From contig OZ024742.1 of the NCBI GenBank assembly GCA_964016885.1, forward strand, positions 368,280,001 through 368,344,000: DNA of 64,000 bases, given 5' to 3'. A program made the translations under genes and the position numbers. This document shows positions 1,151-43,049 of the stretch, one piece after another. Under the pieces are notes generated by a model, which saw nothing but the letters and a program-made list of their open reading frames with translations, did not search any database and was not told the origin of the DNA. The stretch comes from Eledone cirrhosa (taxonomy: Eukaryota). Positions within the stretch are counted from its first letter, which is position 1. Each line of letters starts with the position of its first letter.

Positions 1151-1478
1151 TATATATATATATATATATATATAATGAGTTGGTGAACCGCACGTACTAC
1201 AAAAAACTACAAAACAATATATATATATATATATATATATAATATTTAGAAACACACAGATACATGCGGACACACACATATATACATGAATGCATCCGCA
1301 CCCAACTGTGAGTTAAGGGTGCCAACTTCACCGATGTTGCTCAATGAATGACTGGGACAGACCAATTCAGTTTGAACCAGACTGAACCAGTATCAGAGTA
1401 AAAATACATTATGAAGAGAGAAGAAACATTTAGATATAATTAGTAATAAAATGTATCATACCTAAACTGTTCCTAAAT

Positions 1479-1566
1479 TCCTCGACTACGTAGTTTCGTG
1501 GCATAAACAAAAACAATATATCAAAGATATAGAGTCCTTGCGAGGTCTGCCGACTTATCAAGAGGA
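1479..1566 (-). ncRNA. Type I hammerhead ribozyme, U3:A8 variant (inverted copy)
   Basis: Reverse complement of 2236-2323. Confidence 0.75.
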
Positions 1567-2235
1567 TACCTCATTTTACTAGTCTCAAGAACGCGTCTAC
1601 ACGACGTGAGAAAGAATCCCAAAAGGCGGAGGGGGAGATAGTCACGCGATATAACGGTCGAGAAACAGAGCTAAGCCTCTTATAACCACGAAGAAAATAC
1701 CACGGAGGCGGAGGGGGTATTCATATCGAGGCCGTAGAAGAGGTAGTGAAGAAGGCGAGAAGTATGAGTAATGGAAGCTTTCCAGTTGTCCCCACACTTC
1801 AAAGATTGCTCGACCAGAGGGAGTTATTAATATATTTAAAAAACACACAGATACATGCGGACACACACATATATACATGAATGCATCCGCACCCATTAAC
1901 TCACAGTTGGGTGCGGATGCATTCATGTATATATGTGTGTGTCCGCATGTATCTGTGTGTTTCTAAATATATTAATAACTCCCTCTGGTCGAGCAATCTT
2001 TGAAGTGTGGGGACAACTGGAAAGCTTCCATTACTCATACTTCTCGCCTTCTTCACTACCTCTTCTACGGCCTCGATATGAATACCCCCTCCGCCTCCGT
2101 GGTATTTTCTTCGTGGTTATAAGAGGCTTAGCTCTGTTTCTCGACCGTTATATCGCGTGACTATCTCCCCCTCCGCCTTTTGGGATTCTTTCTCACGTCG
2201 TGTAGACGCGTTCTTGAGACTAGTAAAATGAGGTA

Positions 2236-2323
2236 TCCTCTTGATAAGTCGGCAGACCTCGCAAGGACTCTATATCTTTGATATATTGTTTTTGTTTATG
2301 CCACGAAACTACGTAGTCGAGGA
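2236..2323 (+). ncRNA. Type I hammerhead ribozyme, U3:A8 variant
   Basis: TCCTC-TTGATAA-GTCGGCA...TGCCAC-GAAA-CTACGTAG-TC-GAGGA: stem I TCCTC/GAGGA, stem II with one bulge, palindromic stem III ACTACGTAGT, GUC cleavage triplet. Confidence 0.8.
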
Positions 2324-2826
2324 ATTTAGGAACAGTTTAGGTATGATACATTTTATTACTAATTATATCTAAATGTTTCTTCTCTCTTCATAATGTATTT
2401 TTAACTCTGATACTGGTTCAGTCTGGTTCAAACTGAATTGGTCTGTCCCAGTCATTCATTGAGCAACATCGGTGAAGTTGGCACCCTTAACTCACAGTTG
2501 GGTGCGGATGCATTCATGTATATATGTGTGTGTCCGCATGTATCTGTGTGTTTCTAAATATATTAATAACTCCCTCTGGTCGAGCAATCTTTGAAGTGTG
2601 GGGACAACTGGAAAGCTTCCATTACTCATACTTCTCGCCTTCTTCACTACCTCTTCTACGGCCTCGATATGAATACCCCCTCCGCCTCCGTGGTATTTTC
2701 TTCGTGGTTATAAGAGGCTTAGCTCTGTTTCTCGACCGTTATATCGCGTGACTATCTCCCCCTCCGCCTTTTGGGATTCTTTCTCACGTCGTGTAGACGC
2801 GTTCTTGAGACTAGTAAAATGAGGTA

Positions 2827-2914
2827 TCCTCTTGATAAGTCGGCAGACCTCGCAAGGACTCTATATCTTTGATATATTGTTTTTGTTTATGCCACGAAAC
2901 TACGTAGTCGAGGA
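2827..2914 (+). ncRNA. Type I hammerhead ribozyme, U3:A8 variant (second direct copy)
   Basis: Identical to 2236-2323. Confidence 0.8.
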
Positions 2915-3749
2915 ATTTAGGAACAGTTTAGGTATGATACATTTTATTACTAATTATATCTAAATGTTTCTTCTCTCTTCATAATGTATATATATATATA
3001 TATATATATATATATATACGTGTGTGTGTGTATTTTTATGTGTGGAGGTTTATGTATGTATATATGTACATGTGTGTGCATGTATATATATATATAAATA
3101 AATAGAGAGACACGCATACACATATGTGTGTGTGTGTGTTGCACTAAACCTACAGTAGGTATGTAAGTGTATAGTTACTATAATTCCCAGAATGGTCAGT
3201 TTGACAGTTCAGCTTGTCACTGGGTAGGTTAGTCTCTTAAGATATATCAATCAATAATCCTATATTTACTTCTACAAGACTGCGTCATAACAACAGCAAC
3301 ATTTGCCTTTTAGAACGCTGCTCCACCACTGAGAGATTTGGTGCTAATTTGGCCACAAGGTCAATAATTGGTGAGGAGGGAAATGTCGAGTAGATAGATG
3401 GAAGAAAAGGGGCTGAATTATACAAGAGTTGCAGGAACTGGTGCAGTAGTGCGTCAGGATCAGTATTCGGTAATCAGAAGAAGGGAGGCAGGTGTAAAAG
3501 TCGAACTCGTTATCTTCAATTCGGGATTCGTGCCAACCCTTACCTATGGTCATGAATCTTAGATAATGACCAAACGAATACGTCGCAAATACAAGCAGCC
3601 GAAATGGGGTTCCTTTGTTGGGGTAATATTACAGGATAGAGAGTCACTCCAGGTAGAGCCACTACTTCTCCAAAGGATTTTGCCACAAAGTATTTTGTCC
3701 AGCACTCTACCGATTCTGACATCCACTTTAAGATATTATAGAAATTAAT

Positions 3750-4072
3750 AAACTGGCACTCCGTCAGTTACGACGATGAGTGTTCCAGTTGATGGGATCA
3801 CAGGAACAGTCTACTCATGAAAGTAATTTGCAAGTGGCTGAGCATTCTACTCACATCCTTAACTTAGTTCTCAGGGAGATTCATCGTGACACAGAACGTG
3901 ACAAGATTTGCCCTTCGAAAGACAAGTACAATTCATTTTTTGACAGCTGAGTGGACTCGAGTGACATGAAATAAAGTGTCATGCTCAAGGACACAACGCA
4001 CCGCCGGGAATCGAACTCACGAGTTTACGATCGTGAGCCGAATAACCTTACCAGAAAACCACGCACCTTCAC
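3750..4072 (-). mobile_element. tRNA-derived SINE, family A
   Basis: The minus strand has B-box-like GAGTTCGATTCCC followed by CORE-like TGTCCTTGAGCATGACACTTTATTTC. Homologous to 43975-44285. Confidence 0.75.
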
Positions 4073-40511: not shown

Positions 40512-40592
40512 CGTGGCTGCCAACTCCTTTTCGAGTATGGCCACTACTTTATATCTATGTAGGAGAACCCCTACCGATGCGCTGAACGAGTG
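40512..40592 (-). mobile_element. 3'-end fragment of the non-autonomous RTE derivative
   Basis: Homologous to 28820-28900. Confidence 0.85.
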
Positions 40593-41770
40593 TATACATA
40601 CATATATACATATATATACATACATTCATTCATACATATATATATATATACATACATACATACATGCACTCATACATATATACATACATATATACATACA
40701 TAAATATGTATGTATATATGTAGGAAGTGGTTAGTGCATTCTTACATCTTGTCAATGTGTGTACATGTGTGTGTTTTGCGGTTTCTGTATGTCAACGTTG
40801 GTGTTTCGTATGTATGAGCGTGTGTATGCGTACACATACATGCGTGTGTGTGTGTGTGTTTAAGTATCTGTGCGAGTGTGTGTTTAAGTATGTGTGAGTG
40901 TGTTTAAGTGTGTGTGTTCCCACCTTTCGATCTCTAAAGGTATTAACTTTGGAGATGTTGAAAGGATTGTTTTAGGAACAAATAAAACTGAAACAACAGG
41001 GTTTTAGAGGGAAACACAACAACAAACAGGGTTTTAGAGGGAAACAAAACAACAACAGGGTTTTAGAGGGAAACAACAACACATGTAAATAAATAGAATT
41101 CAACAAAATGACCAAAAATCTGGAATCTTCTTTAGACTGTTCGGAGACTGGTGTAATATTAAAGAAAGGATTCCATTCCTTAGCGAAATCATATGCCTAA
41201 TTCTCCTACATTGGCGAGCAGCACTGATTGAGTAGCTTACCAATTCTAACTGAAGTGAAAACAAACGATGTATATAAAGAAATACTACAATAAGATTGCG
41301 AAGAATGTATCGTCTGGTTCAGTGAATTTTAATAGACAGCTTGGTGTTGTTAAGTATCGCAGGAGAAATAGCAGCCCTCAAGTAACTTTTCCTTTATTTT
41401 CCTTTATATAATATATCTATTTGTATTCGCTATTTTCCTTTCTTCCTTCTCATTGTGAATATGTTGACTACAACTAGATTATGCTTCAGTGAATTATATA
41501 TTTTCAGATGAGGGTTAACAGCAGAAATAAACAACCCTTAAGAGACTATATATATATATGTGTGTGTGTATGTGTGTGTATACATATATATATATATATA
41601 TATATATGAATAATACATATGCATATATATATATATGTAAGTATATATATATATATATATATATATATATATATATATATATATATAAATATATATATAT
41701 ATATATATATATATATATATATATATATATATATATATATATATATATATATATATATATATATATATAT

Positions 41771-41832
41771 AGGAACGAGTAGGACCCCGACGGCTGAGCT
41801 CAAGCCGTTTCGACGGCTAATTCTGGACTAAA
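41771..41832 (-). mobile_element. pLTR 3'-end fragment of the PLE2 family
   Basis: Diverged reverse complement of 14680-14742, abutting (TA)n. Confidence 0.85.
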
Positions 41833-42233
41833 AAATGTGTGGTGACAGTCAAGTTTGCATTATAAACCTGAAGATTGCGAAAGCATGAAAGTATTTGTTC
41901 AATTAACACTTAACATGTAATATTCTACCATACTATTTCATTCTAATACCATTATACATTTTAAAGGATTGTAAATAAAACGAGTAAATCAGACAAAGTT
42001 GGAATTACTTTTATTAATATATATATATATATATATATATATATATATATATATATATATATATATTAAAAATTAGAATTGGAGCTCTGAAATAGCAATA
42101 TATATATGGATGTATATATAATGTATTTTGCAATACACTTTATGCTTAATTAAAAGCATTTTGAAGACCGTAAGCTGTTGTTTTAAAGTAGTGACAAATT
42201 CACTTACTTTGATCTCAGCAAACAGGGGAGATA

Positions 42234-42277
42234 AGCCGACAAGTCTTGTTTCTCTTTGGTTGAAGCTTATCAAGGCT
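42234..42277 (-). ncRNA. Type I hammerhead, U3:A8 variant (stem II base mismatch)
   Basis: AGCC-TTGATAA-GCTTCAACCAAAGA-GAAA-CAAGACTTG-TC-GGCT. Confidence 0.7.
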
Positions 42278-42549
42278 AACTACCCCTCCTGTCTACCGAG
42301 ATCACTGATGTTATATCCTTATAGAAATCTAGTAAATAATCAGGAGCTGATTATGCAGAGCGGTTGTTGGTCAGGCAGAAATTAAAAATTAGAATTGGAG
42401 CTCTGAAATAGCAATATATATATGGATGTATATATAATGTATTTTGCAATACACTTTATGCTTAATTAAAAGCATTTTGAAGACCGTAAGCTGTTGTTTT
42501 AAAGTAGTGATAAATTCACTTACTTTGATCTCAGTAAACAGGGGAGATA

Positions 42550-42593
42550 AGCCGACAAGTCTTGTTTCGCTTTGGTTGAAGCTTATCAAGGCT
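42550..42593 (-). ncRNA. Type I hammerhead, U3:A8 variant
   Basis: AGCC-TTGATAA-GCTT CAACCA AAGC-GAAA-CAAGACTTG-TC-GGCT. All three stems pair; GUC site. Confidence 0.82.
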
Positions 42594-43049
42594 AAATACA
42601 TTATATATACATCCATATATATTGCTATTTCAGAGCTCCAATTCTAATTTTTAATTTCTGCCTGACCAACGATAAAATATGTCCCAGACTTGGAAATATA
42701 AGTAAAAGAGTACAAGAATCCATTAAAGTACCTTCGTGTGTATATGTATGATTTAATATATCTGTACTGCATATATGTATAAACCCATAACTCCTTGTGG
42801 AGCCGTAGGAACGCCATAGTGATATAGGGTTTTTGTGGGTACTTTAAACCTGGTTGAGCCCATGCCTCTCTAGATCTGGACACAGCTGATTTCTTCCGCA
42901 GAGGAGAAAGAAATAAGAATGGGATATAGAGGCATAATCAACCCAGTACTTGACTGGTATTTTTTTTTTTTTTTACCCTGAAACTATGAAAGGCAAAGTT
43001 GACCGCGGCTGGTTCTGAATTCAGAGCATAGAGTCCCGGAACAAATTAC

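Follow-up and report, generated by a model that had tools for sequence, protein, structure and literature searches.

U3:A8 hammerhead motifs in a Hydra-clade Penelope-like element and two tandem repeat units of Eledone cirrhosa: a probable recurrent and compensatory change of the ribozyme core

Three repeats in a 64,000-nucleotide stretch of the Eledone cirrhosa genome (GenBank assembly GCA_964016885.1, contig OZ024742.1, positions 368,280,001 to 368,344,000 of the forward strand; this whole stretch is referred to as the window) carry a hammerhead ribozyme motif in which the core heptamer CTGANGA reads TTGANAA, i.e., the C3:G8 pair is replaced by U3:A8. These repeats are a 591-bp non-coding unit, a 316-bp non-coding unit, and a Penelope-like element, PLE2. 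Are the motifs mutated copies of ordinary hammerheads, or do entire families carry a working variant core, and did this variant then arise once or several times? Our analysis makes it probable that they are type I hammerheads with a U:A core, carried by a Hydra-clade element and by two tandem units whose copying is likely performed by Penelope enzymes, with self-cleavage predicted after GUC and a core swap that is likely recurrent, tolerated, and compensatory. The copies of the 591-bp and 316-bp units in the window and the intact copies of PLE2 have the core boxes, the three stems with an open stem I, and the NUH cleavage site of type I hammerheads.

The 591-bp unit forms an insertion at 1242..2989 (+) that is flanked by (TA)n runs; a direct partial tandem (1889-2989) is preceded in it by an inverted 5' part (1242-1895, -). 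The hammerhead of this unit (2236..2323, +) combines stem I TCCTC/GAGGA, the core TTGATAA at 2241-2247, a palindromic stem III (CTACGTAG), GAAA at 2305-2308, and a GUC site with a predicted cut after 2318. An identical second motif lies in the tandem (2827..2914, +; core 2832), and a third U3:A8 motif, likewise identical, lies in the inverted part (1479..1566, -; core starting at 1561). The 316-bp unit is present at 42065..42670 (-) as a partial tandem that includes a short inverted part and has its 3' end at (TA)n. Its hammerhead (42550..42593, -) comprises the core TTGATAA at 42589-42583, stem I AGCC/GGCT, stem II GCTT/AAGC, and a near-palindromic stem III, the cut being predicted after 42554; in a second U3:A8 copy (42234..42277, -), the first pair of stem II is broken (copy at 42273). 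Both units are protein-free, with longest ATG frames of 75 and 28 amino acids and tandem periods of ~591 and ~316 bp, respectively. PLE2 is a 5'-truncated element at 12039..14743 (+) between (TA)n runs; a short piece of it (12039-12158) is inverted. Its hammerhead (14640..14728, +) displays the core TTGAGAA at 14640, GAAA at 14701-14704, and GUC at 14721-14723, which places the cut site of the family after 14723. The three variant heptamers thus lie where the original prediction had placed them. The complete topology that it attributed to all three was found for the 591-bp and 316-bp motifs and not for PLE2 at 14640, which retains stems II and III and has lost the 5' arm of stem I through a 23-nt deletion between two TTGA repeats. 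This arm is ACCCC (or ACCCT) in other PLE2 copies and pairs with GGGGT.

A type I hammerhead descriptor leaving positions 3 and 8 free recovered complete U3:A8 motifs in the window at 2241, 2832, 1561, and 42589 and canonical C3:G8 motifs at 8749 (+) and 5741 (-); six further canonical copies occupy a 310-bp tandem array. The PLE2 motif at 14640 was not recovered, because the deletion had removed the 5' arm of stem I. Rfam reported no hammerhead at the gathering threshold in the window and one weak HH9 match (42541-42596; 24.9 bits versus a gathering threshold of 52). Since Rfam also missed the canonical motifs of the window, this failure does not come from the core change alone.

If the variant cores resulted from decay, other copies of the same families would carry the canonical core. 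The following counts refer to the whole genome (3.0 Gb) and are counts of motifs rather than of insertions, because one insertion often holds at least two motifs. An exact pattern for the 591-bp hammerhead with positions 3 and 8 free matched 5,918 times, with U3:A8 in 5,895 matches, 11 matches lacking U3, 12 lacking A8, and none showing C3:G8, which rejects the idea that U3:A8 comes from individual decayed copies. The corresponding pattern for PLE2 gave 2,168 matches, and the first 100 listed were all U3:A8. A narrow pattern for the 316-bp unit gave 41 matches (U3:A8 in 41/41) and a wider pattern for its superfamily 2,407, the difference being due to variants of stem I; a hand count of the first 100 listed of these 2,407 gave 86 U:A, 8 C:G, 2 U:G, and single cases of C:A, A:G, A:A, and G:A. 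Reversed-pattern controls for the genome-wide hammerhead patterns returned 0 matches. U3:A8 is therefore the state of the amplified copies of each family, and neither a CTGANGA consensus nor a consensus with unpaired positions 3 and 8 emerged from these counts. As had been proposed, the three families are unrelated in sequence: no common sequence was detectable between the 591-bp, 316-bp, and PLE2 families.

How frequent the variant is among hammerheads of this genome was estimated from 960 kb of sequence, sampled as 96 pieces of 10 kb at round coordinates (descriptor score of at least 26). This sample contained 51 C3:G8, 8 U3:A8, and 3 other hammerheads. Ten shuffled sets of the sample gave 24 descriptor matches in all (3 U3:A8 and 0 C3:G8). 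Mismatched 3:8 motifs were limited to three single copies in the 960 kb, two of which cluster with or read as decayed copies of the C:G type. The third, a U3:G8 motif (locus L120; such labels designate fetched stretches of this genome, or metagenome loci where so stated) was rejected as an intermediate family, being a single copy genome-wide by exact pattern. Matches in an A-rich satellite (L186) and long-loop A-rich matches were judged to be due to chance and were excluded from the family counts.

PLE2 had been described as Naiad-like, an assignment that does not hold. Naiads have an N-terminal GIY-YIG endonuclease and the motif DKA (PMC8557442), whereas the motifs of PLE2 place the reverse transcriptase (RT) first and a GIY-YIG-type endonuclease at the C terminus, with DKT instead of DKA. 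Hydra-clade elements are defined by a C-terminal endonuclease, DKT in place of DKG, RW(K/R), CxCx5C, and CxxC plus CxH (Craig et al. 2021, PMC8557442). PLE2 displays SDKT, RWR (R for K in RWK), the CxCX5C linker CNCPDRSIC, CNLC (CxxC), and CKH (CxH), and its RT motifs line up with those of Hydra-1_Obim in a comparison made by eye; it also shares with this clade (TA)n targeting and a 3' hammerhead (PMC8557442). On the basis of these motifs, PLE2 is a Hydra-clade Penelope-like element. The coding remnant of the window copy, which extends to 13559, covers the 3' half of the RT, the thumb, and the C-terminal endonuclease, and an alignment of this copy with a full one shows 95.5% identity across 2,624 columns. 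Full copies form 3,543-bp tandems with a single open reading frame of 784 to 795 amino acids (718 from the first Met) and are young (median identity of 97%). Of 8,000 candidate proteins that were scored, 2,157 are relatives of the PLE2 protein; identity was 39 to 54% for the 120 listed, none of which bore an informative name.

The next question is whether U3:A8 has a single origin, the original prediction having proposed one variant lineage. At least six unrelated U:A families of this genome carry both changes. Beyond the three families of the window, U3:A8 was seen in autonomous and short families at L144:662 and 5892 (-), L131 and L174, L127, L126 and L077, and L122:7005, L033, and L196; L126 and L077 versus L174 form a second U:A/C:G pair of sisters (~70% identity). 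Eight Hydra-type families could be tied to a hammerhead, fragments without an assignable motif being left out: four are U:A (PLE2, L144, L131/L174, and the degenerate L127) and four are C:G (PLE1/L133, L146, L128, and L122/L061). The protein tree of the families of this genome requires three changes in the 3:8 pair, and a single U:A clade is rejected (approximately unbiased [AU] test, p = 0.00016). Among 77 related metagenome loci, many of them near-duplicates, 56 had C3:G8, one had U3:A8 (L269), one was doubtful, and 19 had no motif. Adding 27 of the metagenome loci (26 C:G and 1 U:A) to the tree by a quick method raised the number of changes to four, at least three of which are forced by the starred branches; in this larger tree, the sister of PLE2 is a C3:G8 family (support of 98). 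The U3:A8 hammerhead of L269 (L269:2400, +), a Hydra-type element, is clean and nested among C3:G8 elements; judged from this placement, it is a separate origin in another organism. U3:A8 thus occurs in 1 of 57 metagenome Hydra loci with a motif versus 4 of the 8 families sampled here, which, with the changes in the trees, indicates that it is rare outside, common here, and recurrent.

The 316-bp superfamily repeats this pattern. In a tree built with positions 3 and 8 masked, 34 U:A rows lie on one side of a branch with 100/100 support (the bootstrap was not fully settled), and the opposite side holds nine C:G rows, including the 310-bp unit of the window, with two U:G rows as tips inside the C:G side. 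The 316-bp family, as placed by this tree, has a C3:G8 sister. The main competitor of repeated swapping is a single U3:A8 origin at the base of the Hydra radiation of this genome, inherited by the passenger units and followed by reversions to C3:G8. All four U:A autonomous families of this genome do fall within one eight-row branch (support of 98, and 100/100 in the first tree), and a single gain with two reversions explains these autonomous families no worse than several gains do. We nevertheless regard a single origin as quite improbable: the U:A families are not one clade by the AU test, PLE2 has its C3:G8 sister, the U:A clade of the 316-bp superfamily has C3:G8 relatives that include the distant 310-bp unit, and L269 adds its own origin. 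The swap likely arose several times, and the proposal of one lineage is not retained.

Fixation within a family reflects one master copy, and covariation was therefore examined across subfamilies. The set comprised 28 distinct motifs of the 316-bp superfamily (30 aligned), compared with 500 shuffles that ignore relatedness. Stems were paired in 97.6% of 372 cells, 7 of 14 pairs showed two-sided changes, and no shuffle matched the pairing or the covariation score (0/500 for each); slid-structure controls were 22 to 48% paired. At positions 3 and 8, the 28 motifs were UA in 18 cases, CG in 7, UG in 2, and other in 1. Stem changes that occur in pairs while 3:8 stays Watson-Crick point to selection on the fold, in keeping with the compensatory character that had been proposed for the double change.

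The insertion footprints bear on how these repeats move. Element ends lie at (TA)5+ for 54 of 55 scored ends of the 591-bp unit, 44 of 59 of the 316-bp unit, and 41 of 43 of PLE2 (loci partly overlapping), versus 5.5% of random 31-base windows, in agreement with the proposed (TA)n targeting. Inverted parts occur in 20/30 loci of the 591-bp unit and 16/30 loci of the 316-bp unit (again partly overlapping), and PLE2 has the tandem and inverted structure of its pseudo-long terminal repeat (pLTR) and a tail. In all three families, the 3' ends form two clusters downstream of the predicted cut: at +80 (15/27) and +243-247 (10/27) for the 591-bp unit, at +139-140 (21/48) and +165-173 (22/48) for the 316-bp unit, and at +20 (28/101) and +103 (43/101) for PLE2, for which a further 15 ends at a single internal position resemble alignment breaks. 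The Penelope tail has been explained by two RT start sites within the element (PMC11167929), and the two clusters match them. Metazoan non-LTR retrozymes are likewise short, protein-free units in tandem, each of which carries one type I hammerhead, and a non-autonomous derivation from Penelope has been proposed for them (Cervera and de la Pena 2020, PMC7229834; Li et al. 2026, bioRxiv 10.64898/2026.07.22.740005). As judged from these features, the 591-bp and 316-bp units are retrozyme-like passengers that encode no protein and bear the insertion footprint of Penelope elements, and the two 3' end clusters, (TA)n ends, and inverted parts suggest that they function as non-LTR retrozymes do, with Penelope enzymes mobilizing them. 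They differ from metazoan retrozymes by their U3:A8 core and by the length of the 591-bp unit (about twice the usual ~300 bp). No sequencing run on record as RNA was listed for these units. Contigs from four sequencing runs of unstated type contained the 591-bp unit and a joint that returns after 591 bases, no change being listed at position 3 or 8, which fits circles or tandem DNA.

Folding predictions suggest how the motifs could cut. The minimum-energy fold of intact PLE2 is the hammerhead, so that it may act as a single motif. Predicted homodimer energies of stem III were -12.9 kcal/mol for the 591-bp unit, -8.7 for the window copy of the 316-bp unit, -19.5 for a palindromic 316-bp variant, and -26.3 for PLE2. 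Given their weak monomer folds and palindromic stem III, the 591-bp and 316-bp motifs would cut as dimers from tandem copies, which fits, at the level of prediction, the model in which type I hammerheads of animals act as dimers (PMC4209133). Cutting after GUC would free a unit-length RNA, possibly circularized, as is plausible from the biology of Penelope elements and retrozymes. A Hydra RT/endonuclease would then start synthesis at two set positions downstream of the ribozyme and insert the product at (TA)n, which would account for the observed pair of constant 3' ends, the variable 5' ends, and the inverted parts. In evolutionary terms, C3:G8 would be the usual Hydra state, with at least three switches of the pair among the autonomous families examined and further switches inside two sets of sister repeats.

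Several points weigh against this reading. Few 5' ends in the fetched loci lie within 4 nt of the predicted cut: 0/25 for the 591-bp unit, 3/48 for the 316-bp unit, and 0/97 for PLE2. By hand count, 6 of 27 readable TA-to-element junctions of the 591-bp unit (3/30 loci were unreadable) fall exactly at the predicted cut, without TA microhomology, a weak hint of cutting, and an equal share (6/27) falls at -5, a site of TA microhomology. Separately, of 97 PLE2 5' ends, 21 lie no more than 43 nt upstream of the cut and another 15 in the 150 nt preceding that segment, a count that is biased because the loci were chosen by their hammerhead motif; short stubs of PLE2 (L008, L010, L020, and L023) and of another Hydra family described below (L124 and L236) also start just upstream of the hammerhead. 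The predicted share of monomers in the hammerhead fold is low (2.5% for the 591-bp unit, ~0 for the 316-bp unit, and 27% of the ensemble under constraint for PLE2), and insertion by one Penelope element in vitro was unaffected by hammerhead mutants (PMC11167929). Fixation within a family reveals only the state of the master copy, and two of the five covariation measures did not exceed the shuffles (pairs with two-sided changes, 68/500; further pair types, 492/500). The trees were built from stitched, partly short fragments (176 amino acids for L127), and they do not distinguish gains from reversions. No common sequence was found between the 591-bp or 316-bp units and PLE1 or PLE2, the only elements compared, and hence no autonomous partner among them.

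Some of these points would also suit the view that the motifs are dead or nearly so and that two transitions toward A/T hitchhiked in master copies and spread without cutting. Both changes are indeed transitions of this type in AT-rich repeats, insertion in vitro was independent of cleavage (PMC11167929), and the 591-bp and 316-bp monomers are predicted to fold poorly. A family with another altered core has, in addition, become very abundant. This Hydra-type family, the nearest to PLE2 (~52% protein identity) and its sister in the larger tree, has a terminal hammerhead-shaped motif in which stem III has 5 bp and core position 4 is A rather than U (L122:1444 [-] and L236:1471-1560 [-]). It has 14,852 exact matches in the genome (C3-A4-G8 in 98 and A4 in 100 of the first 100 listed), with U4 in only 48, and is the most abundant Hydra motif among those counted; core changes can thus spread, a further point against functional U3:A8 motifs. 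Changes at position 4 reduce hammerhead activity without abolishing it. Further A4, C4, and G4 motifs were seen in the genome sample, and a literature search on hammerhead U4A yielded nothing evidently relevant among the titles found. Stems that stay paired through repeated two-sided changes in U:A subfamilies, mismatched 3:8 motifs limited to three single copies in 960 kb, and the joint presence of both changes in at least six unrelated U:A families make dead motifs a distinctly doubtful explanation. We therefore retain, from sequence evidence, the reading that the U3:A8 hammerheads of these families are likely functional.

The U3:A8 pair itself is a rare variant that was already published, and the novelty claimed for it had been overstated. 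Natural covariation from C3-G8 to U3-A8 is reported for several hammerheads (Perreault et al. 2011, PMC3088659), and U3-A8 is active in vitro according to that paper, which cites its reference 32 for this point. The natural variants described there are scattered examples, whereas here whole families carry the variant and sister families occur in both states. Closest to our case are the Cercyon Penelope-like elements of Schistosoma mansoni, whose minimal U3-A8 hammerheads gave ~1,300 matches with a descriptor built for them (Cervera and de la Pena 2014, PMC4209133). The likeness includes an identical core covariation, a position in a Penelope pLTR, a family scale, and escape from the canonical descriptor (PMC4209133). 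Unlike the families studied here, which have a palindromic stem III of 4 to 9 bp, Cercyon hammerheads lack helix III; the present families also differ by their host, by belonging to the Hydra clade, by more copies, and by including tandem non-coding units. As had been argued, descriptors limited to CUGANGA are blind to U3:A8, and this string was the one used for hammerheads, Naiads included, in PMC8557442. In the hammerhead table for Hydra elements of that study, which derives from the canonical descriptor, 26 of 26 rows are C3:G8, whereas PLE2 is U3:A8; the elements are also <3 kb versus 3.5 kb for the young PLE2. Our literature search found no report of U3:A8 in Hydra elements or retrozymes (Lunse et al. 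2017, which possibly covers such variants, was outside that search), and a search on octopus hammerhead ribozymes returned nothing on U3:A8. What is new is the presence of U3:A8 in Hydra elements and the A4 family.

The window holds other repeats. PLE1 (6086..8846, +) is a decayed Hydra-type element ending in a canonical C3:G8 hammerhead (8741-8811; core 8749). The 310-bp tandem with canonical C3:G8 hammerheads (8845..10799, +), which served as a comparison element, sits in (TA)n at the end of PLE1 and comprises ~5 near-identical units and an inverted part; it is distantly related to the 316-bp unit (69% across 461 columns). Stubs of PLE2 relatives at 475-722, a head-to-head palindrome, and at 41735-41832 contain the 3' hammerhead half only. 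A satellite at 15651-27990 contains ~360 copies of a 33-bp unit (90 to 96% alike), and a second long repetitive region (43300-64000) has many spurious-looking open frames on both strands. Non-LTR retrotransposon fragments occupy 28600-39100, with RVT_1 matches at 31968-34614 (-) and 34619-35755 (+); several are set in (CATA)n runs, and one has a 279-bp fold-back near 38800.

Since the U3:A8 variant was already known, hammerhead chemistry is unchanged by these findings. Their weight lies in scale: about one in eight hammerheads here (8/62 in 960 kb), and roughly ten thousand motifs in three families, are invisible to CUGANGA descriptors, to which the A4 family adds its own matches. Surveys that used such a descriptor and reported elements without hammerheads merit a rerun. 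The related C3:G8 and U3:A8 families provide matched natural constructs for the role of Penelope hammerheads and for whether the cleavage rate matters. A bolder proposal, which we find unlikely as matters stand, is that the Hydra radiation of this genome, together with its passengers, forms a natural allelic series in the hammerhead core, with the 3:8 pair flipping repeatedly and A4 besides, because slower cutting is favored in sparing uncut or circular template for copying from two start sites. If this were true, the cleavage rate would be a tuned trait that sets the amplification of Penelope elements and retrozymes.

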